Part shown: positions 1 through 61,492 of the stretch, piece by piece
Layout of the letters: the number at the start of each line of letters is the position of its first letter
Numbering within the stretch: the first letter of the stretch is position 1
Assembly: GCA_017939755.1 (NCBI GenBank)
Contig: JAGBAJ010000042.1
Location: 31,563 to 95,562, forward strand
Source: Clostridia bacterium
Lineage (GTDB): Bacteria; Bacillota; Clostridia; TANB77; CAG-508
DNA: 64,000 nt
Direction: 5' to 3'
Notes under the pieces: generated by a model
What the model saw: only the letters and a program-made list of their open reading frames with translations
The model's database searches: none
Told to the model about the DNA's origin: nothing
Translations under genes and position numbers: made by a program

Positions 1-345
1 TTGTGCAACATCTATTTTTCCAACATATCTTTGCAGAAAATATGTTAAATTTTCCATATACAAATCCATTATTTTATCAAAGGCTTCTTTATTTCCACTT
101 AAAAATTCTTGATATAGTAATTTTGTATCTTCCATTTTTCCTCCCTTCTAATAGTTATACAATTCTAATTGCCAAAAGTAACGCTTTTCTATATAATATC
201 TTTTTACCTCGAATTAAATTAGGATAAGAACAAAGCAGGAAAGTCAGCATGACTTTCCTAATGTATAAAAAAGCAGCACCTGGGATAGTCCCAAGTGCTG
301 TAAAATAAAACAAATTAAATCAAAGTCTGCTTAATGTAAATCTCT

Positions 346-1956
346 TTATAATTCGCTTTTGCCATATAAGATCTCATACGAACTACGTGCATCCTCCGCA
401 GCAGTGCGAGCTTCATCAGCTTTTTTCTGTGCTTTAGCTAATTCCTCGTCGGCCTCTTCTGCCTTAGATTCCAGATGCTCAGCCCAAAGCCTTGATACAA
501 CTTCGAATATACGCTGTTTACCATAATCGCTGATGACAATAATATCCTTATTACCTCCACCAGTACCAATGTATCCAATATCAGCTCCTGTATAGAATGC
601 AATGTTACCAAGGTACTCCCAGAGCCCATCGGGAAGTGTATTCTCATTCACGTTGTTGAAATGTTTAATCTGCCAATCAACCTTGAGCTCTTTATAGATG
701 GGCTCGTACTCATCCTGGAAGAATGGCCAGTTGGGTGCAATTTCACCAGTTTCCTTGTGACGATAAGCAATGCAAATTTTGGCCATGCTACCTGGAATCA
801 TCCCTATTGTATCCATACAATTGATAGCAAGTTTGTGATTGGCACCATTCCGAAGGATAGCCTCACGAACACATACGCAATCAAACCAACCAAGAAGTCT
901 TCTTCTGCCAGTGGTAACACCACACTCGCCATTCACGTCATGAATGAAATTGTCTATCTCAAATTCGTAAAGATTGTTTTGGTCAAACTTCGTAACAAAG
1001 TGGCCACCACCAACCTTAGAAGCATAACCTTTGGCAATGAGAATAACTCCCTCTGTCAAATCATTAAGTCCAAGTCCTGCATCTGCCATTGCACCAGCAA
1101 CTGTAGTATGTGTGGATGTAACCATATGACCGCCATTTCCAAAGATAGAATCCAGACCAAAAGCCTGAGAAACCTCCAGTACTACAGCCCAACCATGGAG
1201 TTTGGTGTAACGGATGATTTCTGAGCTATTTACAACATTGAGCTCCTGTACAGCAGTATACAGAGATTGCATATAATTGTCTATGCCATCAAATTCTGTT
1301 GCAATACTGTCCCAAATTTCCTGTGGAACATCTGGAATAGCTATAAAAAGCTCTTTCAATTCATCTGCATTTTTGCAAGCCTTTGCCTGAGCGAAGCGGA
1401 TATCAACTCTAAGAGCTCTATACGCAACCGTAGGACCAACACCAGATCCAGTTGTGCCGACTTTATTTTTTCCGTCTTTTTTTGACTCATAGTATCCATC
1501 CATAAGTCTTTCAAGCATGGTTGAAAGTGTGGCACGCTCATCCACGAGAATTTTCTGACGCTGTTGCGAAGGAAGCACAGACATTTCGTCATGAATCCGG
1601 ATAGGATCCAGAAGCATTCCGCCACCAAGCAGAATTATATCTGATACCAGACCACCGCTAGGAAGGTAGTGAAAATGGTATTCTTCCTCGGTAAGCGTAT
1701 CGATGACAGTATGTCCCGCGTTTCCGCCTCCTTGGCCTCTGACATTAATGACAGAAAAGCCTTTTTCCTTGTAATCGCGAATAGCAATATCCACGATTTT
1801 CCCCTTGCCCTCGTCGCCAAAGTGCGACCCAACAACGGCCACACCAGCGTTATACGCAAGAAAGTTCTTCTTGTTGAGAGCATATGGAAAAGGTTTTCCT
1901 GCTTCTGTCTTTGCTTCATTAATCAAGTCAGAGACATTTGGAATTTTTTCATTCAT
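346..1956 (-). CDS. Adenylosuccinate synthetase family protein, atypically long (536 aa) with N- and C-terminal extensions
   Basis: P-loop 'GDEGKGKIVD', 'GGGNAGHTV' and 'YHFHYLPSGGL' match the PurA fold motifs (GDEGKGK / GGxNAGHT / IPSG). It is ~100 aa longer than canonical PurA and has a charged coiled-coil-like tail ('AEEADEELAKAQKKADEARTAAEDAR'). GGAGG RBS upstream. GC ~43% versus ~27% background. Confidence 0.7.
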   Translation of the reverse strand: MNEKIPNVSDLINEAKTEAGKPFPYALNKKNFLAYNAGVAVVGSHFGDEGKGKIVDIAIRDYKEKGFSVINVRGQGGGNAGHTVIDTLTEEEYHFHYLPSGGLVSDIILLGGGMLLDPIRIHDEMSVLPSQQRQKILVDERATLSTMLERLMDGYYESKKDGKNKVGTTGSGVGPTVAYRALRVDIRFAQAKACKNADELKELFIAIPDVPQEIWDSIATEFDGIDNYMQSLYTAVQELNVVNSSEIIRYTKLHGWAVVLEVSQAFGLDSIFGNGGHMVTSTHTTVAGAMADAGLGLNDLTEGVILIAKGYASKVGGGHFVTKFDQNNLYEFEIDNFIHDVNGECGVTTGRRRLLGWFDCVCVREAILRNGANHKLAINCMDTIGMIPGSMAKICIAYRHKETGEIAPNWPFFQDEYEPIYKELKVDWQIKHFNNVNENTLPDGLWEYLGNIAFYTGADIGYIGTGGGNKDIIVISDYGKQRIFEVVSRLWAEHLESKAEEADEELAKAQKKADEARTAAEDARSSYEILYGKSEL

Positions 1957-2249
1957 TATATTCGACCTCCAATCGAATTATGTTTATGGTCGGGTATTCG
2001 TCAAAAGACTATACGCCTTTTGGGCTTATTCGCATATGCTGCATTTACGCAACATACAGAATAAGTACTTTGACTTTGTTTTTGGTATCAACCTCCAATA
2101 TTTGTTAATTATTTTGTACACGAATTCCATACGGAAATTCATGTAGTATTATATTACCTTTTGGGTGTTATGTCAATTGATTTGCAATATAAAAAGAGAA
2201 TCTATTGTAGAATTTGTTACGATTCACAGATTAATTGCATTTTATATAA

Positions 2250-2459: not shown

Positions 2460-2798
2460 TTATCTACCAAATAATTTTTTCAATTTTTGTATAATTCTTT
2501 TAAGCCAACTTTCTTTTTTTCCTTCTATAATTAGTCCCTTTTCCATTTGTTTTTTATTTTTTTCATCAGCCCAGTAATCTAAGTATATATTAGATAAAAT
2601 TCCTTTGGTTATATCAGATATATTCTGCTCATTTATATCTTTGCTATAGTCTATAGAAAAATCATACTTGGTGTCCATATTTCTTTCTAATGACAATATT
2701 AGCTCTTTAGGAAGTTTGTTATAATTTTTTATAGACATGTTATTAATTATTGTTAATGCTTCTGTGCAAGCTCTACTATATTCATCATTCATTGCCAT
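2460..2798 (-). CDS. Hypothetical small protein (112 aa), overlapping and apparently translationally coupled to the upstream kinase-like gene
   Basis: ORF of 112 aa that overlaps the 323-aa ORF by 14 nt. No recognisable motifs. Confidence 0.4.
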   Translation of the reverse strand: MAMNDEYSRACTEALTIINNMSIKNYNKLPKELILSLERNMDTKYDFSIDYSKDINEQNISDITKGILSNIYLDYWADEKNKKQMEKGLIIEGKKESWLKRIIQKLKKLFGR

Positions 2799-3756
2799 TA
2801 TCCCCTTCCATCTTTTGATATATTTTGTTTAAATATGATTTAGCATCATTATGACATTGAAAAGAAACTTTATTAGCTATGCTTTCAATGTCCTTTACTG
2901 AGGTTAAAACAGATGTGTCTTGGGGTTGAATTCCATATAATAATTCGTTTTGCTTCGTTATTAATGCCATTTTTCTTCCTATATTATTACAAATTTTATT
3001 AATATCTTGCTCACTTATTGATCTAAAAACTGGCATATTAAGAATTCCATTGATATAATCTCTTGTTAAGTATTTCTGTAGGGATTTTGAAACTTCTTGG
3101 ATAGACTCTGGATATTTTTGGTACATTTCCATCATAATATCTATATCTGACTTACCATCATAATTTGTATCTGAATCACAAAAAGCCATGCTCATGTCGT
3201 AGTACATATCTGGATTACGAACTATCCCGCTCTTTTCATCAAAAATTAGCCTACAATTATCGCTTTTTATATCAGTATTTCCAATAAAAGCTGATATAAA
3301 AATATATTTCTTAAAGAATTCCTTTCTTTGTTGCCAAAATTCGATTGGAATGCTAGGATATAAGGCACTATATGTGTACGCATCTAATTCGATGCTATTG
3401 TCTATTCCAATTGGTAATTGTGGTAATCTAATATCCTGAGAATTAAATGTAGTCGTATTTTCTAAAAATTGCTCACCATCCCTTAGAATATCCATAGATA
3501 AACAGCCAGTTTTTCCGTTATCATCTTGTGTAAGCTGAATATTTGCAGTACGTATTCCTGCCGAGTTAAGTATAAGAGAGCCTAGTAATTCCCTTAAATC
3601 TGTATTTTTACCAGTAAAGCAATTTTTTTTATAAAGTCCCTTCTTTCCCAGCTCTGGAACATAGTATTCTTCTATAATAGAGCCATCGCTTGCTTGTAAG
3701 TTATTTTCACTATTTATTTTCTTACAGTCATGTAAATTAATTCTATTAAAGTTCAT
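2785..3756 (-). CDS. Hypothetical protein, possible HipA-like / protein-kinase-fold protein (candidate toxin)
   Basis: 'IGNTDIKSDNCRLIFDE' resembles the HipA catalytic loop 'GNTDDHLKN' and the Hanks-kinase 'HRDxKxxN' pattern. 'VRNPDMYYD' resembles HipA 'LAPAYD'. The assignment is from a weak motif-level resemblance only. Confidence 0.35.
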   Translation of the reverse strand: MNFNRINLHDCKKINSENNLQASDGSIIEEYYVPELGKKGLYKKNCFTGKNTDLRELLGSLILNSAGIRTANIQLTQDDNGKTGCLSMDILRDGEQFLENTTTFNSQDIRLPQLPIGIDNSIELDAYTYSALYPSIPIEFWQQRKEFFKKYIFISAFIGNTDIKSDNCRLIFDEKSGIVRNPDMYYDMSMAFCDSDTNYDGKSDIDIMMEMYQKYPESIQEVSKSLQKYLTRDYINGILNMPVFRSISEQDINKICNNIGRKMALITKQNELLYGIQPQDTSVLTSVKDIESIANKVSFQCHNDAKSYLNKIYQKMEGDNGNE

Positions 3757-6632: not shown

Positions 6633-6786
6633 AAATTCGGGGTATAATATAAATTTATAAAGTGAAGTTAAGGTGGGGACCAACAAGTTAGAGAATCTAA
6701 ATTTTACAAGTGTATAACGTAGTAAAAAATAGATTCTCTTATGCAGTTGGGGCGAAACGTATAAATTTATATTATACCCCGAATTT
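6633..6786 (+). ncRNA. Copy 2 of the 154-nt structured repeat element
   Basis: Perfect 27-bp closing stem 'aaattcggggtataatataaatttata' / 'tataaatttatattataccccgaattt' around the conserved core 'gaagttaaggtggggaccaacaag...gcagttggggcg'. Confidence 0.45.
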
Positions 6787-6836: not shown

Positions 6837-8000
6837 TTATTTTATTAATTCCTTGTGTATTCGCTCTAATACATCATTTCCAACAATAGTATTAAAAGTT
6901 AATCGGATCTTACCATTATTAATATCTATTTTTTGTATTTTAGTATCTTCCGCTTCTAATAAGTTAATTGTACTACCTAGTACATTAGTGTCATTAGTTA
7001 TACCATATCCTATAATAGATATTCTAGATATCTTCTTGCTAGTTATATGATAATCTTTAAATACACTACCTGAAATGTACTCTAATTTTCTATAGTCTCC
7101 AGCCTTTAATAATATACGTATTTCATATATGTTATCTATATACTCAATAGGCATTATTTGATTACTAATAAGCATCTTATAAATATCAATTATATTTGTA
7201 TTGTTATTTTTCATTTGTACTAGCACAAGTTCATCGTTCTTTACAAGGCTCTTAACTTTTTGAACTTCTATTTTGTTATTTACTATAGTACCCTCATCTT
7301 CGTTAAATGTTGATTTAGCCATTATAGGAATATTAAATTTTTTACCTAGCTCTACGCATCTGTTATGAAGCACCTTTGCTCCTTCATTAGATATATCAAG
7401 CATTTCATCGTATGAAAGCTCTTTTAATTTAACCGCTTCTGGAAATTTTCTAGGATCAGTTGTAAATACTCCCTCTACATCAGAATATATATAGCAACAT
7501 TTTGCATTTAGAGCTGCAGCAACCGAAACAGCAGTTGTATCTGAGCCTCCTCTTCCCAGTGTTGTTATATCTAAAGTTTCATTTATACCTTGAAATCCCG
7601 CAATTATAACTATCTTTCCATGCGATAGTTCATTTGTTATTCTAGAGGAATCTATATGCTCAATTATGGCATCTTGATTTGTATTATTTGTATATATACC
7701 GGCCTGCCATCCAGTAAGAGAAACTGCTTTGTATCCCAATTCATTTAGTAGTATACTTAGTTTAGAAATAGATACTTGTTCCCCTGTACTTAGCAATACA
7801 TCTAGTTCCCTATTGCTAGGATTAGGTGATAACATATATGCTTCTTCTAGTAAATGATCTGTACTTTTCCCCTGAGCAGATACTACTACTACCACATCAT
7901 AGTTAGCTTCTTTTAATTTAATAATTTTATCAGCAACTACTTTTAGTTTATCGTTATCTGCTACAGAACTTCCTCCAAATTTTAAAACAATAGTATTCAT
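6837..8000 (-). CDS. Aspartate kinase
   Basis: N-terminal 'IVLKFGGSSVAD' nucleotide-binding motif, 'GRGGSDTTA' and C-terminal ACT-like regulatory region. Co-localises with asd / dapA / dapB elsewhere in the window. Confidence 0.88.
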   Translation of the reverse strand: MNTIVLKFGGSSVADNDKLKVVADKIIKLKEANYDVVVVVSAQGKSTDHLLEEAYMLSPNPSNRELDVLLSTGEQVSISKLSILLNELGYKAVSLTGWQAGIYTNNTNQDAIIEHIDSSRITNELSHGKIVIIAGFQGINETLDITTLGRGGSDTTAVSVAAALNAKCCYIYSDVEGVFTTDPRKFPEAVKLKELSYDEMLDISNEGAKVLHNRCVELGKKFNIPIMAKSTFNEDEGTIVNNKIEVQKVKSLVKNDELVLVQMKNNNTNIIDIYKMLISNQIMPIEYIDNIYEIRILLKAGDYRKLEYISGSVFKDYHITSKKISRISIIGYGITNDTNVLGSTINLLEAEDTKIQKIDINNGKIRLTFNTIVGNDVLERIHKELIK

Positions 8001-13506: not shown

Positions 13507-14712
13507 CTAATCCTCAATCCATTCAATTTCGTCAAAGTCAAGCTCTCTACCGATAAGAACAACGGGTTTCTGGTAACCTCCTTTGTATTCGTTTATAGGA
13601 ACAATTGTGGCTGCTCTAGCAACAAAGGCTTTACTCAGTTCATCGTTTGTCAATCTTATTCTGGGCTTGATTTTCTTAGAAAGCTTTTGTTTTGTTTCAT
13701 CAAACTCTGCATCATCAATAACGTACACATTATTAGCATATTTTAGCTTAATAGAAACAAGTTTACTACATGGAAAATGGGAAACCAATTCTGAAATAAT
13801 ATGACATGAGATTTTCTGTTTTCCATTTTCATTAGTGATACGCTGATTTGTATCACACCAACAGAATTCATCTCTTGCGACCTTCGATAAATTGGTTTTG
13901 GCTCTCACCCATAGTGGTACTAATCTTGGAAATGACCCGAAACTTGCATACCTATCTTCAGGAGGCAATTGCTCAGGGTTTTCAATTCCTTTTCTAATTC
14001 GATCAAGATCTGAACTGGGACAAATACTAAAGATTCGCTCCCATGGTCCATTATATGGTACAAGCTTTTCATGAGTTTCTTCTACCAATGTGGGCTCTGG
14101 ATTATTAAGAATATTATCCAAAACATTTGCTTTTAGCCAGCCTATAATTCTCTCAAACGTTTCATCAAGGCTGATGCTCTGCGGTTCATTGTCCATAGCT
14201 GCGTATTCGCGATCACAATCTGTAGTGTTAATCAGCATTGAGGATCTTACACCATTTTCACCAGTGTGATTGCCCAAATACAGTAAATACCTGCGGGGCT
14301 CTTTGTTAAGCTTGGCGTGAATTTTAATAGAATTCATAAACCAATTCTTATCCTCTTGCCACTTATCACCCACATACAAATAATACTTTGGCCCAGATTC
14401 ATCTTCGAATACTTCGAGGCATTCGTGAGAAATATGTACGCTGCAAAGAGCTGCAGTATCACTCCACCTTGAATCAAGCATTCCCTGTTTACGACTAAAT
14501 GTTAGTTTGAAATCTTGCCCTCTAATGTACCGAACCTTTTTGTATTTTGCTTCGCCAGATCCATATGAGTCGAATTCAACAACGATTCCAGGAACCCTCC
14601 AATTTCGTTTTTCCAGCTCTGTAATAATGTCACTTGCTATGCTGTCAAATGGAAACTGTCTAGAGTGTGGATACAAGAATTTTGGTTTTACATCAAAAAT
14701 AGACATGAACAT
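13507..14712 (-). CDS. Hypothetical protein (401 aa) in a GC-elevated island
   Basis: AGGAGG RBS; GC ~42% versus ~27% background; no motif I can assign. Downstream hairpin terminator at ~13455-13495. Confidence 0.5.
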   Translation of the reverse strand: MFMSIFDVKPKFLYPHSRQFPFDSIASDIITELEKRNWRVPGIVVEFDSYGSGEAKYKKVRYIRGQDFKLTFSRKQGMLDSRWSDTAALCSVHISHECLEVFEDESGPKYYLYVGDKWQEDKNWFMNSIKIHAKLNKEPRRYLLYLGNHTGENGVRSSMLINTTDCDREYAAMDNEPQSISLDETFERIIGWLKANVLDNILNNPEPTLVEETHEKLVPYNGPWERIFSICPSSDLDRIRKGIENPEQLPPEDRYASFGSFPRLVPLWVRAKTNLSKVARDEFCWCDTNQRITNENGKQKISCHIISELVSHFPCSKLVSIKLKYANNVYVIDDAEFDETKQKLSKKIKPRIRLTNDELSKAFVARAATIVPINEYKGGYQKPVVLIGRELDFDEIEWIED

Positions 14713-18872: not shown

Positions 18873-19375
18873 ATTAAATTCATTCCTTTCTTTTTTTGAC
18901 TTTTTAATTATGAAGTCAATTATTTTTAAATCAAAAAAAGATATAACAAAAAAACTATTTATAAGATTTTTATTTTCCTACAAATAGTTTTTAAGTATAT
19001 CTTTTATTTTAAAATATTTTTAAACTATCGTAGGCACAGCATTTTAAGCCTGTACCTACGCTACTTACAGCATATGGTTACAAGCTCCTACGATGATGAT
19101 GTAATTGGTTTAAAAATATTTTTGACTTCATAATTATTCTCCTTTTTTATTTTAAAAGTAAATTTATGGTAGCATGATTATTTTTATTTGTCAAGCTTTT
19201 ATTTTTTCCTGCAGAGCAAAGACGTAAAAAACTCTTGCATATACTAGAAAAAATAGAAAATCATGCTTACCCCTCCTATAATAGGACAAATCGGAAAGCA
19301 AGCATGACTTTCCGAATGTATGAAAAAGGGATTCAGACATACGCCCGAACCCCTCCGTTGCTTTGATAGATAATT

Positions 19376-26441: not shown

Positions 26442-27749
26442 TTATATAAACTTATCAATATATTCAATCATAAATAAAGGTATATTTAGTATTTTTCCAT
26501 CTTGTACTAAGTTATTTAATGATAAACGTACTGATAAATCACTTTTAAATTTTTCATTAAATCTTGTTAGACTTGTATTATTAGTTGACTTGTTTGATTT
26601 TACTTCTATTGGGATAATTTTATTTTGGGTTTGTATTATAAAGTCAATTTCATGTCTATCAAATGTGAAATAATTTGGGACATTTTCATAAGTTGTATTT
26701 AACATATTTAATACATAATTTTCTGTATATGCACCTTTAAATTCTTCGAATAGTTTATTTCCTTCTGCTATTATTTTGCTATCTAAATTAGACATTTTTC
26801 TTAGTAATCCAATATCATTCATATATATTTTAAAGCAGCTTAAGTCATGGTATGCTTTTAGCGGAAAATCTGGTTTTGAAATATTGTATACTTTATATAC
26901 TAGATTTGCATCATTCAACCAATTTAAAGCATTTTCATATTCTCTAGCTCTTGCACCTTCTTTTATTGTTTGATATAAGAATTTTTTATTTTCTTTAGCT
27001 AGTTGCGATGGTATACTATTCCAAATTAAAGATATTTTATTTGCTTCACTATTTTGTGTATGCTTTGAAAAATCATTTTCATATGATTTTAATATATTAT
27101 CCTGAATCCAATTTACTTGCTCTATATCTTTATCATTTACCCAAGAATAAACTGCTTCTGGCATACCACCTATTATAAAATATGCTTTTAGCTTTTCTTC
27201 TAACATATTAAAGAAAATATCTGAAATCTTCTCCAAGTTATTTATGGATTTCATGTATTCAACTAAATTGCTGCAATTATCAGCTATTAAAAATTCACTA
27301 AATGACATTGGATATAAATTCATAAATTCTACTTTTCCAACTGGAAACGATGTATGTGAAAGTCTTATTCCAAGTAGACTTCCAGCACATACAATATGAT
27401 ATTGATTAGCTTCTTCTTGAAAATATTTTAGTGAATTTAAAGCATTAGGACATTCTTGTATTTCATCGAAAAAAATCAATGTTTTTTCTGGTAATATTGC
27501 CTTTCCATATATAAAAGTAAGCTGCTCTAATATTCGTTTTGGATCTTTTGTATTTTCAAATAGATTATATAAATTTTCATCATGGTCAAAATTAAAGTAT
27601 GCAATTCCTTCATAATTTTCTTTTCCGAATTGTTTTAAAATATATGTTTTTCCTACTTGTCTTGCTCCTTTTAATATTAGTGGTTTTCTATTTTTGCTAT
27701 TCTTCCAATTAATTAACTTTTTCATTATAAAACGTTCCATTCTCTTCAT
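26442..27749 (-). CDS. AAA-family ATPase with C-terminal DUF4143 domain
   Basis: Walker A 'LILKGARQVGKTY', Walker B 'IFFDEIQ'; C-terminal 'HEIDFIIQTQNKIIPIEVK' is characteristic of DUF4143. Confidence 0.85.
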   Translation of the reverse strand: MKRMERFIMKKLINWKNSKNRKPLILKGARQVGKTYILKQFGKENYEGIAYFNFDHDENLYNLFENTKDPKRILEQLTFIYGKAILPEKTLIFFDEIQECPNALNSLKYFQEEANQYHIVCAGSLLGIRLSHTSFPVGKVEFMNLYPMSFSEFLIADNCSNLVEYMKSINNLEKISDIFFNMLEEKLKAYFIIGGMPEAVYSWVNDKDIEQVNWIQDNILKSYENDFSKHTQNSEANKISLIWNSIPSQLAKENKKFLYQTIKEGARAREYENALNWLNDANLVYKVYNISKPDFPLKAYHDLSCFKIYMNDIGLLRKMSNLDSKIIAEGNKLFEEFKGAYTENYVLNMLNTTYENVPNYFTFDRHEIDFIIQTQNKIIPIEVKSNKSTNNTSLTRFNEKFKSDLSVRLSLNNLVQDGKILNIPLFMIEYIDKFI

Positions 27750-27795: not shown

Positions 27796-27891
27796 ATCAC
27801 ATTTTTGCAAGTTTTATTTTACTTTTTATCACACTTTTGCGAGTTTTATTTTATTTTCTATCACACTTTTGCGAGAATTATTTTGTTTTTG
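27796..27891. repeat. Three tandem 32-bp direct repeats (ATCACAYTTTTGCRAGWWTTATTTTW...)
   Basis: Units at 27796-27827, 27828-27859 and 27860-27891 with >85% identity. They sit in the divergent promoter region between the DUF4143 ATPase gene and the + strand membrane-protein gene. Confidence 0.8.
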
Positions 27892-28584: not shown

Positions 28585-29010
28585 ATAATTATTCTAAGCT
28601 TGCGCTAATGTATTATTTGTAATCTTTATTTACATATAATACTCCATCTTTTATCTATTTACTTTTTTGTAGTATTGCATGCATGAATTTTGAAGCACAA
28701 ATTTGAACATAATTTGGAAATAACCTCTATGGCGTAAACTTATTATGTTTTGCAGTGTCGAATAAATCTGAAAAAATCAAAGTTTTTTTCAGTAAATTTG
28801 TTCGACACATGTATTATCCGTAGCTAAGCTTTGCATAAGATATCTGTAGCTCATTTCATTCGCACAGCTATCTTAACTTCGTTGCGCATGGCTAATCAAT
28901 GTGCATCTGTTTTTGCGAAGCCTTTTTTATACATTAGGAAAAGTCAGCATGACTTTCCTAATGTATAAAAATAAGATGTGGGAATTCAAAAATGAATCTC
29001 ACATCTATCA

Positions 29011-45358: not shown

Positions 45359-45802
45359 ATGAAAAGTCGGACAGCAAAAGTTTTAGGGGTTGCTGTTATT
45401 GCAGTCATTGCAGCCACTGCAATTGCAATGGTGAAAGAAAAAAGTAGTGAATTGGAGGCAACCCCATTCACAACCACAACAGCAACAGAAATCACAGCAA
45501 CAGCAACAGCAGAAACAACAGCGACAACAATTACAACAGCAACAACAACCACAACAACTACTCTGGAGGTTAGAAAATATCTCCCAGAGTATACCCGTTC
45601 CTCTTATTGTAAGGGAAAGGTACTTACCACATCAATTGTGGTAAAAGACCAAAACGGCAATATTTCTGACTATATAAAAGAAGGAGAAACCTTCTATTAT
45701 TTAGATGTAGAAAATTACGGTAATATGGTCCACATATTTTATGAAAGGGCCAATGCCGTGTGCGACGGTTGGATACCGGAAAGAGAGGACTGGTGGAATT
45801 AA
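45359..45802 (+). CDS. Secreted protein with a Thr/Ala-rich low-complexity linker and a small C-terminal globular domain; GC-elevated
   Basis: Signal-peptide-like N-terminus 'MKSRTAKVLGVAVIAVIAATAIA'. About 45 residues of T/A repeats. Sigma-A-like promoter upstream (TTGACT-17-TAAAAT at ~45283-45312). Hairpin terminator downstream. Confidence 0.5.
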   Translation: MKSRTAKVLGVAVIAVIAATAIAMVKEKSSELEATPFTTTTATEITATATAETTATTITTATTTTTTTLEVRKYLPEYTRSSYCKGKVLTTSIVVKDQNGNISDYIKEGETFYYLDVENYGNMVHIFYERANAVCDGWIPEREDWWN

Positions 45803-49608: not shown

Positions 49609-49762
49609 GACTCTAAGATATAGAGTTAATTTATGTTGTTCCGCCCCAACTGCGAAGAATAAGTACTTGCTGCTTTGCTACCCGCTTGCAGCATTCACTT
49701 ATTCTATCTTGTCGGTCCCCACCTTAACTTTACATCATAAATTAACTCTATATCTTAGACTC
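49609..49762 (-). ncRNA. Copy 3 of the 154-nt structured repeat element (reverse orientation)
   Basis: Perfect 27-bp closing stem 'gactctaagatatagagttaatttatg' / 'cataaattaactctatatcttagactc'. The minus strand carries 'aagttaaggtggggaccgacaag...cgcagttggggcg'. Apical region differs from copies 1 and 2 but still forms a hairpin ('gctgc...gcagc'). Confidence 0.45.
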
Positions 49763-57031: not shown

Positions 57032-57338
57032 TTTTTTACCTCCTAAAAAAATTATTAAATCATATAGATTTGTTATTTACTCGCTCATTATATAATATAT
57101 AAATTCCAAATTCAAGATTTTATTAATTTAAAATGCCATATTAGTTACTATTTAATAGCGTAAAGTAAAAAGCTTTGTAATATGTGAATTTTGACTTCCT
57201 ACTTCGGATGCTCTGCTATTTCACTAAAGCATTAATATTCTACCCTTAACTTTACATAATTTAGTTTTAGTGGTATACTATAGTTATGGGGGATTTCTTA
57301 CTTCCACAGACTGAGTGCCTGTATGAAAGGAAAAAAAT

Positions 57339-58161
57339 TATGAAAAAAATCATCATTGCAGTTGTTTGCATGCTTGCAAGCATCTGCACCTTCATCACAA
57401 GCACAACCATTTCATTTGCTGCATCAGCAGCTATTGACGACCTTGCTGACATTGCCTGCCTTGATGTAACGGGAGATGGCGTTATCAGCGAAAGCGATTA
57501 CGAAGTCGTTCACCGTAATGTATTTGAAGGCTATACTAGCATTGCCACGCTGGTTAAGCTCGAAAAATACCTCAATCACATTAACTATAGCGTAATAGCA
57601 GTTAATGAGGAAAACACTAATCGCATTAGAAACTGGTTAGGATTTTGTGGCGGATCAATAGATATTCGTCACGCCTGCAGTGGAGCGATTATTGACATTT
57701 CTGATGATGGTGAAACATTATGCAGATTTGTGTTTAGCTCCGGATACTCTGAGGAGATGCCCGAAGAGGCAAACGTAGTCATCCGTCATGTGAGCGAGTG
57801 CGGAGTGGTTTACACCATCTGGGAAGATGGAAGCCACTACTACATCCACGAACAAGAGATTGAATTCGAGGATAAGAAGATAACGGAAGTTAAATTCGAC
57901 AATCCTCTCCTCGCAAATTGGTTTTACAATTGCGAGGCAGAATTCAAATTACGTGAATATCCTGATGGAGCTATAGGCCTCTCCTTTGAGGACGCTAAGA
58001 GCGCTTATATCCTCGTATTTGAGGAGGGCTTCTCAGAAATGCCTCCTACAGGAACTGGAGAAATTATTCATCGCCACTGGCTGCCCAATGAAAAGCGTGA
58101 GCTTATCATATGGGGTAGTAACGACGGTAAGTATCACGTAAGCATCATATCCGAATCGTAA
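57339..58161 (+). CDS. Secreted protein with a dockerin / EF-hand-like 'DVTGDGVISESD' motif; strongly GC-elevated (~45%)
   Basis: Start at MKKIIIAVVCMLAS (signal peptide) with RBS 'aaggaaaaaaattATG'. Flanked by a 12-bp inverted repeat: gactgagtgcct (57309-57320) and aggcactcagtc (58177-58188). Confidence 0.5.
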
Positions 58162-58280: not shown

Positions 58281-59030
58281 TTATCCAATATCATTCATAT
58301 CATACAAGCCTGGTTCATTTTTAGATGCCATAAATTTAGCAGCTTTAACTGCACCATCAGCAAAAACACTCCTTGAATACGAAGTATGCTTAATCTCGAA
58401 ACTTTCGTTCTCACTAAAGAATATTACAGAATGCTCTCCTACAATATTTCCACCTCTAATAGAGCTTATTCCTATTTCATTTTTACTTCTTTTTTCATGC
58501 TTATCATGTCTATTAAATTCGTATGACATTGATCCGTTAAGAGCTTTGTTTATTGAGTCAGCAAGTAACATAGCTGTTCCACTTGGACTATCTATTTTTC
58601 TGTTATGGTGAGTTTCTACAATTTCAATATCATTATCGCTAAGTTGCTTTGCTAAATTAGCAACTATCCTACACATCAAATTAATATCTAAAGACATGTT
58701 AGCTGATTTAAATACTGGAATTTCTTTTGAAGCCGCTCTAATTTCCGCTTCTTGCTCTTCTGCGAAGCCAGTAGTAGCAATAACTATAGGAATTTTTTTA
58801 TCCTTAGCATATTTTAAAATTTTCATAGTAGCAATTGGAATTGAAAAATCAATAATAACATCCGCTTCTTCTTTAATATCATTATAGTCAGTGTACACAG
58901 GGAAAGTATACTCTCCTGTATTTTCTTTATCAACACCACCTATTAAAACGCAATCATTATCTAAGCCCACAATCTTTGCAACCTCTTGTCCCATTTTACC
59001 ATTGCAACCATTTATTAATACCTTTATCAT
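58281..59030 (-). CDS. dapB: 4-hydroxy-tetrahydrodipicolinate reductase
   Basis: 'IKVLINGCNGKMGQEV' NAD(P)-binding N-terminus and 'ETHHNRKIDSPSGTA' catalytic motif (E-xHHxxKxDxPSGTA). Confidence 0.9.
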   Translation of the reverse strand: MIKVLINGCNGKMGQEVAKIVGLDNDCVLIGGVDKENTGEYTFPVYTDYNDIKEEADVIIDFSIPIATMKILKYAKDKKIPIVIATTGFAEEQEAEIRAASKEIPVFKSANMSLDINLMCRIVANLAKQLSDNDIEIVETHHNRKIDSPSGTAMLLADSINKALNGSMSYEFNRHDKHEKRSKNEIGISSIRGGNIVGEHSVIFFSENESFEIKHTSYSRSVFADGAVKAAKFMASKNEPGLYDMNDIG

Positions 59031-59049
59031 ATGTCCTCCTATTCTTTTA

Positions 59050-59131
59050 AATGAGGGACGGGGTTCGATTTTAAATTTTTTAAATTTAACCCCGTCCCCA
59101 GTTTCAAATTTTTTAAATTTAACCCCGTCCC
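59050..59131. repeat. Tandem duplicated hairpin element between dapA stop and dapB start (2x 'aaattttttaaatttaaccccgtccc' plus an upstream complementary 'gggacggggtt')
   Basis: Copies at 59073-59099 and 59106-59131; complementary arm at 59055-59065. On the minus-strand mRNA this gives two GGGACGGGGUU segments competing for one AACCCCGUCCC partner. Confidence 0.7.
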
Positions 59132-60012
59132 TAATTTGAAAAAAGCTCTATTGCTTCTTTTAAAAGCTTTTGTTTATCCATACTCATCTCTATTAGGGGT
59201 AATCTTGGTATACCAAAATCATAGCCAATCATATTTAACCCAGCTTTTACTGGTATAGGATTTACCTCCGAAAATAAATTATCAACTAAATCTAAACAAG
59301 CCAATTGCTTTCTTGTAGCTTCTTTTATGTTACCATTTAAATAGTCGTATACCATTTCATGTGTATATTTAGGGTATAAATTTGATAATACAGAAATAAC
59401 CCCTATTCCACCCACAGATAGTATTGGAACTATTTGGTCATCATTACCTGAATATATATTTAAATTTTCTCCACACAAAGATGCTATTTGGGCAACTTGT
59501 GATATATTTCCACTAGCTTCTTTTATAGCAACTACATTCTCTATTTTAGATAGCTCTAAACATGTTTCTGGCAATATATTAACTCCTGTTCTGCTAGGAA
59601 CACTATACAATATTATAGGTAACGATGTACTGCTTGCTATAGCTTTATAATGCTCTATTAGTCCCTTTTGTGTTGTTTTATTATAATATGGCGTAACAAC
59701 TAAGGCTCCATCTACTCCTATAGATTCTGCATACTTTGTCATTTCTATAGCAGCCTTTGTGTTATTAGACCCCGTTCCTGCAATTACAGGTATTCTTTTA
59801 TTAACCTTATCGACAGCAAACTTTATAGTATCCTTACGCTCCTTATCCGTCATAGTAGAAGCCTCTCCTGTTGTACCACATACAATTATGCTATCAACAC
59901 CCTCAGATATTTGGTGCTCTATCAAATCACCAAAGACTTTAAAATTTACTCCATTTTCATCAAATGGAGTCGCAATAGCAGTTCCACATCCTTTAAATAT
60001 AATCTTTTTCAC
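59131..60012 (-). CDS. dapA: 4-hydroxy-tetrahydrodipicolinate synthase
   Basis: 'GCGTAIATPF', 'GTTGEASTMT' and the Schiff-base lysine context 'VVAIKEASGN' of the DapA/NAL family. Confidence 0.9.
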   Translation of the reverse strand: MKKIIFKGCGTAIATPFDENGVNFKVFGDLIEHQISEGVDSIIVCGTTGEASTMTDKERKDTIKFAVDKVNKRIPVIAGTGSNNTKAAIEMTKYAESIGVDGALVVTPYYNKTTQKGLIEHYKAIASSTSLPIILYSVPSRTGVNILPETCLELSKIENVVAIKEASGNISQVAQIASLCGENLNIYSGNDDQIVPILSVGGIGVISVLSNLYPKYTHEMVYDYLNGNIKEATRKQLACLDLVDNLFSEVNPIPVKAGLNMIGYDFGIPRLPLIEMSMDKQKLLKEAIELFSN

Positions 60013-60950: not shown

Positions 60951-61271
60951 TTAGTAATTCTGTACTACAGGCATTAACCCAAAAATCTGAGGTCTGCTCT
61001 GATTTATTGCAGAAATAAGAATCTGCACAAACAAAGCAAAAACGTAAATGCTGGAAACTGCACCACATATGGATGCAATAAAACCACCATTAAAAATGGC
61101 ACCTACCAGTCCTGACGCTAATCCTGCAGCTATGCCACAGATTGTTGCGTTTAACGACTGAATAAGGTAGTACTTTGATGATTTGTCTTTACCCATGCTG
61201 TAAATGATTGCGGCTATTATCAGTCCTGGAATACCAAGACATGATATGATGGATGTCATTTTTGAATTCAT
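60951..61271 (-). CDS. Small hypothetical membrane protein (GC-elevated)
   Basis: Start MNSKMTSI with RBS 'GGAAGGAGcgttcaaaATG'; 2-3 TM helices, Gly/Ala-rich. Confidence 0.4.
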   Translation of the reverse strand: MNSKMTSIISCLGIPGLIIAAIIYSMGKDKSSKYYLIQSLNATICGIAAGLASGLVGAIFNGGFIASICGAVSSIYVFALFVQILISAINQSRPQIFGLMPVVQNY

Positions 61272-61492
61272 TTTGAACGCTCCTTCCTGACATTCGTTAT
61301 TGTTTACCCGATTCCGCAAAATCGGTGCTAGCAGCCCTTCTGCTAAGCATGTGTATTATTATAATATACATTTGAAATAATTGCAATATATAACTTTCTA
61401 TTTCATTAGTCTTTAGTAGAATCACCTATTTTTTCAGTGTCCCTAAAATCTTTTTTAGATCTGCTGTTTTTTGAGAGTAGTCCACAAATACA

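Follow-up and report, generated by a model that had tools for sequence, protein, structure and literature searches.

Near one end of a 64-kb stretch of Clostridia bacterium DNA (the window), the minus strand carries an open reading frame (ORF; 346..1956) that starts with ATG and encodes a 536-residue protein of the adenylosuccinate synthetase (AdSS, PurA) family. The protein is 100% identical to MBP3708003.1, annotated as 'adenylosuccinate synthetase [Clostridia bacterium]' (P0001; labels in L and P denote the loci and proteins of the relatives compared). Ordinarily AdSS is a lone housekeeping enzyme that evolves slowly, and it is a known target of stringent-response nucleotides and natural antimetabolites. 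Judging from sequence comparisons, the window protein falls within a compact, hitherto unnamed and uncharacterised AdSS/PurA clade limited to low-GC Clostridia of the animal and human gut, and may be an accessory form of the enzyme. The gene itself reads as a self-contained monocistronic unit, with a predicted promoter, a structured leader, a coding sequence and a terminator:

2148..2176, minus strand: sigma-70-type promoter, TTGACA-17 nt-TATAAT, agreeing with the consensus at 12 of 12 positions (sequence match).
1957..2141, minus strand: 5' leader of approximately 185 nt (hairpins and cross-locus conservation).
2140-2122, minus strand: first hairpin of the leader.
2072-1995, minus strand: conserved core of the leader, with two covarying hairpins (P1, 2066-2059/2031-2025; P2, 2022-2002).
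1978-1960, minus strand: leader hairpin with the Shine-Dalgarno sequence GGAGG in its loop.
346..1956, minus strand: coding sequence of a divergent AdSS-family protein of 536 residues (ORF, PF00709, AlphaFold2, Foldseek), comprising an N-terminal extension (residues 1-37), the AdSS core (38-477) and a C-terminal helix (477-531).
267..300, minus strand: intrinsic terminator, a 12-bp GC-rich stem CAGCACTTGGGA-CTA-TCCCAGGTGCTG followed by CTTTTTT (fold z-score -6.1).
236..260, minus strand: second hairpin, 21 nt, GGAAAGTCATGCTGACTTTCC, a member of a short repeat (family D5).

An equivalent promoter, TTGACA...TATAA(T/G), lies upstream of the clade gene in L001 and L004, and the core of the leader is conserved between the window, L001, L004, L012/L091 and L020. 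Analysis of five leader sequences with RNAalifold returned 18 pairs, four of them with compensatory changes, and the stem of the Shine-Dalgarno hairpin also covaries (ATTCGA/TCGAAT versus ATACGA/TCGTAT). The leader motif is confined to positions upstream of clade AdSS genes; it has no match in Rfam, and no known riboswitch was detected upstream of the gene in the window or in six related loci. Expression of the clade gene is probably controlled through this leader. At the other end of the unit, the segment at 238-300 that an earlier sequence-only reading of this DNA (the initial annotation) described as a palindromic repeat resolves into two hairpins, the intrinsic terminator and the hairpin of the short repeat. 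The latter repeat, GGAAAGTCAGCATGACTTTCC followed by TAATGTATAAAAA, is present at 236-271, 19295-19326 and 28940-28971 of the window; two of these copies are identical and one abuts the AdSS terminator.

The complete Pfam profile PF00709 (positions 1-416 of 416) aligns with residues 40-473 of the protein (E 3e-74), which contains GDEGKGK at residues 47-53, QGGGNAGHT at 75-83 and YLPSGG at 97-102. The initial annotation had correctly recognised a 536-residue AdSS homologue with terminal extensions, as well as its P-loop and NAGHT motifs, and misread the third motif as IPSG where the sequence has LPSG. Relative to E. coli PurA, the protein has approximately 37 extra N-terminal residues and a C-terminal tail of 59 residues; the internal insertions that had also been proposed are present and small, the core measuring 440 residues against 425 (a net gain of 15). 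An AlphaFold2 model built with 131 sequences reached a pLDDT of 94.9 and a pTM of 0.92. In this prediction of the extensions, which had been suggested as a check alongside the initial annotation, the N-terminal segment forms short helices and the tail, noted from the outset, becomes a single unbroken helix spanning residues 477-531. Foldseek aligned the model with solved full-length AdSS from bacteria and eukaryotes (TMt 0.83-0.88) and placed it at a greater distance from archaeal short AdSS, PurZ0, PurZ and DgsS (TMt 0.71-0.86), while the top sequence matches in the PDB were to E. coli PurA.

In AdSS, Asp13, Lys16 and His41 serve in catalysis, Arg143 reaches the inosine monophosphate (IMP) site from the partner subunit, and Asp333 engages guanine. 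For a residue-level comparison, 120 clade relatives were aligned with 142 canonical representatives (E. coli numbering is used throughout). The catalytic Asp13, Lys16 and His41 (D48, K51 and H82 in the window protein) are invariant in 119 of the 120 clade members, and the IMP-binding residues Asn38, Thr129, Arg143, Gln224, Thr239 and Val273 are kept in 118-120 of them. The contacts to aspartate and the 2'-OH, Thr300/301, Arg303 and Arg305, are likewise retained within a GVTTGRxR motif with invariant R351 and R353 (the role of Arg303 in AdSS-fold enzymes is described in PMC8342488). Overall, D13, K16, N38, H41, T129, R143, Q224, T239, V273, T301, R303, R305 and D333 are essentially invariant across the clade. 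A loss of Asp333, suggested by the HMMER pairwise alignment, was rejected, since the multiple alignments show this residue to be kept.

The clade also has fixed substitutions of its own: R/K131S in 117 of 120 members, and K331C (NCMD for TKLD) and S414G in all 120, together with R306D/N, R147T/Q, D231L/I and a change of EGAQG to EVSQA. Among the elements of guanine specificity, Asp333 is kept in 120/120, Lys331 is replaced by Cys in 120/120 and Ser414 by Gly in 120/120; positions 331 and 414 vary in canonical PurA too (His331 in 8 and Gly414 in 39 of the 142). By alignment and predicted structure, the protein appears intact, with a full-length AdSS fold and all the residues known to participate in catalysis and substrate binding, including the aspartate- and IMP-binding residues, whose inspection had been proposed with the initial annotation. 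The clade protein most likely condenses IMP (or a closely similar 6-oxopurine ribonucleotide) with aspartate using GTP.

The boundaries of the clade are sharp. An exhaustive search of 1.84 billion representatives returned only a handful of clade clusters at 554-292 bits followed by canonical PurA at no more than 187 bits; the lowest-scoring full-length clade representative stands at 358 and the best canonical one at 187. Clade and canonical PurA share 29.5% identity in the median and 37.4% at most; the median among canonical proteins is 39%. The window protein also falls below the NCBIfam equivalog cut-offs for purA (TIGR00184, 218.5 versus 395.55 bits; NF002223, 229.1 versus 402), so that comparison with the PurA and PurZ families, another step proposed with the initial annotation, confirmed its place in the AdSS superfamily and assigned it to a divergent clade beneath the cut-offs of both sets of models. 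Carriers amount to only about 12 of 185,579 GTDB species representatives, all of them 'Clostridia bacterium' metagenome-assembled genomes (MAGs) from the guts of sheep, goat, chicken, rabbit and similar hosts, and the JGI metagenomes contributed only 7 clade loci, human-gut contigs among them. An N-terminal extension of about 30 residues is common to the whole clade (the N-terminus and the P-loop are separated by a median of 41 residues, versus 11 in canonical PurA). Long tails at the C-terminus are confined to P0001, P0002 and P0045, plus P0012 and P0029, proteins of approximately 660 residues in which a C-terminal DUF1653 (PF07866) is fused to the AdSS core. A literature search found no description of this AdSS clade, nor of the function of DUF1653.

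Comparison with known enzymes places these features in context. With E. coli PurA (PDB 1ADE/1CG0; EC 6.3.4.4) the clade shares the full-length fold (TMt 0.83-0.87), the GDEGKGK and NAGHT motifs and the contacts to IMP, aspartate, Mg and GTP; it differs in its low identity (~30%) and in R131S, K331C (NCMD for TKLD), S414G and EVSQA for EGAQG, and the window protein is further set apart by its 37-residue N-terminal extension, 59-residue C-terminal helix, accessory distribution, atypical GC content and sub-cut-off NCBIfam scores. The canonical 422-residue PurA of gut Clostridia (L031/P0267 and L025) comes from the same type of host, belongs to the same family, has the same catalytic residues and also lacks Lys at position 331 (His, in NHVD). 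Unlike the clade, to which it is ~30% identical, it has an ordinary GC content, no extensions and a sequence conservation of 81% or higher across its more than 120 clusters. Vertebrate muscle AdSS (ADSS1; PDB 1IWE) likewise has about 33 residues before its core (residues 39-473 of the query align with 34-454 of the chain), but this extension is unrelated in sequence, the active-site signature of ADSS1 is canonical, and a C-terminal helix is missing.

The genomic setting of the clade gene combines conserved and variable elements. In at least nine loci it lies downstream of yabP-yabQ-divIC-rho, a location which indicates that the gene is chromosomal and long resident. Between rho and the AdSS gene, the window contains a slot occupied by two ORFs and a 158-nt repeat element. 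The two ORFs (2785-3756, 323 residues, and 2460-2798, 112 residues; minus strand, overlapping) have no Pfam match, and relatives have unrelated genes at this position; the larger one weakly matches PDC-M03A, a candidate defence family in PADLOC (E 5e-7). In L001 the slot holds a different ORF of 585 residues, with a restriction-modification-like insertion downstream, an integrase lies nearby in L007, and restriction-modification, toxin and integrase genes occur in the slot elsewhere. The clade gene is also found at other sites: in L010 (6803-10017) it sits between hrcA and grpE of an otherwise conserved hrcA-grpE-dnaK operon, and in L008/L009 it adjoins a tRNA gene (no tRNA gene was found in the window). 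Its neighbours vary from locus to locus, with no conserved partner genes.

The structured element that the initial annotation had placed upstream of the gene is real (2248-2405), and two more copies are present in the window, at 6633-6786 and, inverted, at 49609-49762. These elements of about 158 nt have terminal arms of 27-32 nt that are perfectly complementary (32 nt in the copy at 2248-2405); the arms differ between copies and the interior is conserved (CGCCCCAAC ... TTGYTGGTCCCCACCTTAAC). The element has no match in Rfam and may be a structured RNA or resemble a miniature inverted-repeat transposable element. Two distant loci, L008 (about 7655-7815) and L009, also have a related element upstream of their clade AdSS gene, and it shares the GCTGGTCCCCACC core.

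The distribution and evolutionary rate of the clade bear most directly on its role. In L172-L175, the closest relatives by Rho (85.8% identity), as well as in L207 (81%) and L208 (78%), no AdSS gene is present within 7-10 kb downstream of rho, the upstream synteny being the same. Two allele types, A and B, occur at the same locus and conflict with the neighbouring genes: the window and L007 are 85.6% identical in Rho and 70.5% in the AA-kinase (the closest), but only 51.9% in AdSS (the most distant, of a different sub-type). In L022 (5938-6561; MAG BRZ_IL__bin4) the clade gene ends after approximately 196 codons and gives way to unrelated AT-rich DNA, which makes this copy either a pseudogene remnant or a misassembly. 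A further MAG, E40__bin214, contains both a clade member (L018) and the canonical 422-residue PurA (L031). Finally, more than 120 clusters of canonical PurA from low-GC gut Clostridia show conservation of 81% or higher, whereas clade members are 50-79% identical where Rho is 77-92%, and the nonsynonymous divergence (dN) of the clade AdSS exceeds that of rho or prfA by a factor of 2.5-3.

The absence in relatives, the discordant alleles, the other insertion sites, the truncation, the co-occurrence and the slower evolution of the canonical enzyme favour an accessory isozyme, from a divergent, dispensable and lineage-restricted AdSS clade that has retained its catalytic apparatus, and we consider the chances that this description is right to be about even. 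Such a protein would work as an alternative AdSS beside the canonical 422-residue PurA or, in some lineages, replace it, and its changed surface and nucleotide-site residues may alter regulation or inhibitor sensitivity (for example, of the guanine-nucleotide or (p)ppGpp type) rather than the chemistry. The suspicion voiced in the initial annotation that the gene may not be the housekeeping purA is therefore plausible, though unproven, in view of the sub-cut-off scores, the discrete clade, the absence beside rho, the truncation and the co-occurrence in one MAG.

A number of observations weigh against the accessory reading. Activity and substrates are deduced from residue conservation, and K331C, S414G and R131S, being located at or close to the nucleotide and aspartate sites, could possibly bring about a change of substrate. 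The co-occurrence in E40__bin214 concerns a single MAG in which both contigs are about 3 kb long, and a binning error is possible. Identity between the AdSS proteins (52-63%) is only moderately below that of the AA-kinase at the same locus (62-70%). The comparison with relatives was made at the level of the locus, and a gene missing beside rho is not necessarily missing from the genome; its loss could also reflect dispensable IMP-to-AMP synthesis in organisms that salvage adenine. To these points is added the lasting GC excess.

Several of the same observations suit a different proposal, in which the protein is the sole housekeeping PurA of its lineage, a fast-diverged or anciently replaced orthologue dedicated to ordinary AMP synthesis. 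Its catalytic and substrate-binding residues are all intact, its chromosomal position beside rho is conserved in many species, its divergence is near that of the neighbouring AA-kinase, and the proportion of synonymous differences (pS) between syntenic copies, 0.72-0.84, corresponds to saturated synonymous sites and hence to long residence. In addition, a tblastn search with canonical PurA revealed no second AdSS within 6-10 kb of any clade locus, the 64-kb window itself lacks a canonical purA, and a tblastx comparison of canonical-purA flanks with the window yielded AT-rich noise only. Set against this are the syntenic relatives (Rho 78-86%) that have no AdSS at the locus, the truncated copy in one MAG and the presence of both types in another, the discordance of allele types A and B with Rho and the AA-kinase (window versus L007), and the widespread, well-conserved canonical 422-residue PurA of ordinary GC in comparable low-GC gut Clostridia. 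On balance we regard a sole housekeeping role as rather unlikely.

Another possibility is that the clade has been neofunctionalised into an AdSS-fold ligase that uses another nucleotide, phosphoryl donor or amine, with a role in, for example, nucleotide modification, antimetabolite resistance or phage defence. The clade-fixed R131S, K331C, S414G, R306D/N and EVSQA in or near the ligand sites would agree with this, as would the patchy, accessory distribution, the variable slot with its weak PDC-M03A match and its restriction-modification, toxin and integrase genes, the variable terminal modules (DUF1653 fusions included) and the dedicated structured leader. The AdSS fold has, moreover, been recruited before, in PurZ (PMC8342488), and it was to this enzyme that the initial annotation had drawn an analogy.

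The phage PurZ and PurZ0 proteins (PDB 7ODX, 6FM1 and 7VF6; 2-aminoadenylosuccinate synthetases) indeed share an AdSS-derived fold with the clade and provide the precedent for recruitment to a new substrate, but the analogy does not hold up in detail. The window protein scores 62.2 bits against the PurZ model NF038379 (cut-off, 300) and its fold is nearer to full-length PurA than to PurZ and PurZ0 (TMt 0.71-0.77). The clade retains both Asp13, a position occupied by Ser23 in S-2L PurZ, and Arg303, whose geometry-defining loop is of the PurA type and lacks the PurZ insertion (PMC8342488). The context is chromosomal, beside rho, with no datZ or mazZ. As regards neofunctionalisation in general, Asp13, His41, Gln224, Arg303 and Asp333 are invariant, covering IMP deprotonation, activation of the 6-oxo group, the contact to the 2'-OH and aspartate, and guanine recognition (for Arg303, see PMC8342488), and variants at 331 and 414 also occur in bona fide PurA (His331 in the canonical Clostridial enzyme and Gly414 in 39/142). 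The AdSS protein matched no PADLOC family at E <= 0.01, and neither conserved partner genes nor phage homologues were found. We therefore consider a change of function doubtful.

The base composition of the gene is as distinctive as its sequence. The guanine-plus-cytosine (GC) content is 0.431, and 0.367 at third codon positions (GC3), against a mean GC of 0.292 for the window and a GC3 of 0.12-0.24 for nearly all its other ORFs, in keeping with the anomalously high value of about 43% reported in the initial annotation; among the large annotated genes of the window its GC3 ranks first, exceeded only by that of an unannotated 291-residue ORF (57286-58161). The step in GC coincides with the boundaries of the leader-plus-coding-sequence unit. 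Within the gene, CAG, GAG, CTY/CTG and CGN codons are increased and ATA and TTA reduced (CAG 0.71 versus 0.13 in the background, CTY/CTG 0.85 versus 0.16, ATA 0.14 versus 0.54), and amino-acid usage is shifted as well, with the highest GARP and lowest FYMINK values among the window genes compared. All clade genes examined behave similarly: across three distinct sites in the genome, their GC is 0.36-0.47 and that of the flanks 0.24-0.33. For canonical purA of comparable genomes, the GC is 0.28-0.32 and the GC3 0.07-0.18.

Since the synonymous sites are saturated, the excess is old and not a trace of recent transfer. High-GC genomes, phages and IMG/VR yielded no clade member, nor was a plasmid-like donor context seen; the relatives returned by the tblastn search of phage records and by the IMG/VR scan did not exceed 33% identity. 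An explanation of the elevated GC3 by high expression was rejected for L010, where the adjoining dnaK has a GC3 of 0.05 and the AdSS gene 0.227; the window has no ribosomal or glycolytic reference genes, so the expression comparison is confined to that locus. From these comparisons, high GC appears to be an old, clade-wide property and not a mark of recent acquisition, and any transfer must by the same evidence have been ancient or recurrent. Candidate causes are acquisition long ago from a donor of high GC, with amelioration still incomplete; repeated exchange accompanied by biased gene conversion in a slot prone to recombination; and selection on the mRNA. As the clade gene has held its GC 10-15 points above that of its hosts over long evolutionary time, it cautions against reading a GC excess as recent transfer. 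Three further ORFs of the window, at 13507-14712 (minus strand), 57286-58161 (plus) and 60951-61319 (minus), have a GC of 0.38-0.43, a GC3 of 0.32-0.45 and no Pfam, PHROG or PADLOC match, and may share the compositional class of the AdSS gene.

Composition and location can also be brought together in a broader proposal, which we hold to be no less doubtful than neofunctionalisation itself. According to this, the clade (GTT[GK]SGVGP / EVSQA / NCMD) would be an AdSS-fold enzyme that has been neofunctionalised or is regulated differently, and that moves as a one-gene cassette into variable chromosomal slots of gut Clostridia (downstream of rho, within hrcA-grpE, beside a tRNA gene). Recurrent exchange or selection would keep its composition unlike that of the host, and a new leader RNA that senses a ligand would control it; the enzyme might serve the AMP branch while being insensitive to inhibitors or alarmones, or act as a ligase of altered nucleotide or amine specificity. 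By far the least probable explanation is the one drawn in the initial annotation, recent horizontal acquisition from a higher-GC donor, which would account for the foreign-looking codon usage (CAG, CTY/CTG, ATA), the GARP and FYMINK extremes and the coincidence of the GC step with the leader-plus-coding-sequence unit, but is contradicted by the same excess in every clade member at several sites, by the pS values between syntenic copies and by the failure to find a clade member in any high-GC genome, phage or IMG/VR entry.

If the accessory isozyme reading is true, the presence of an additional AdSS, divergent, dispensable and equipped with a leader RNA of its own, would suggest that abundant, uncultured gut Clostridia have a layer of purine-branch regulation or resistance that has gone unrecognised. 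Annotation pipelines label clade proteins 'adenylosuccinate synthetase' despite their sub-equivalog scores, and metabolic reconstructions from MAGs may consequently err in either direction.

The window has a few other repetitive features away from the AdSS locus. An ORF at 45359-45802 (plus strand, 147 residues) consists mostly of CAA/CAG-rich imperfect repeats of 9-15 nt (family D1), with elevated GC and no Pfam match. Three tandem 32-nt units, ATCACAYTTTTGCRAGTTTTATTTTAYTTTYT, occupy 27796-27891, just upstream of a gene (26442-27749) with AAA_14/DUF4143. Lastly, a 43-nt inverted repeat at 59042-59144, with arms 79% complementary, a 17-nt spacer and the sequence GGGACGGGGTT, sits between the ORF at 58281-59030 and the DHDPS gene (59131-60012).

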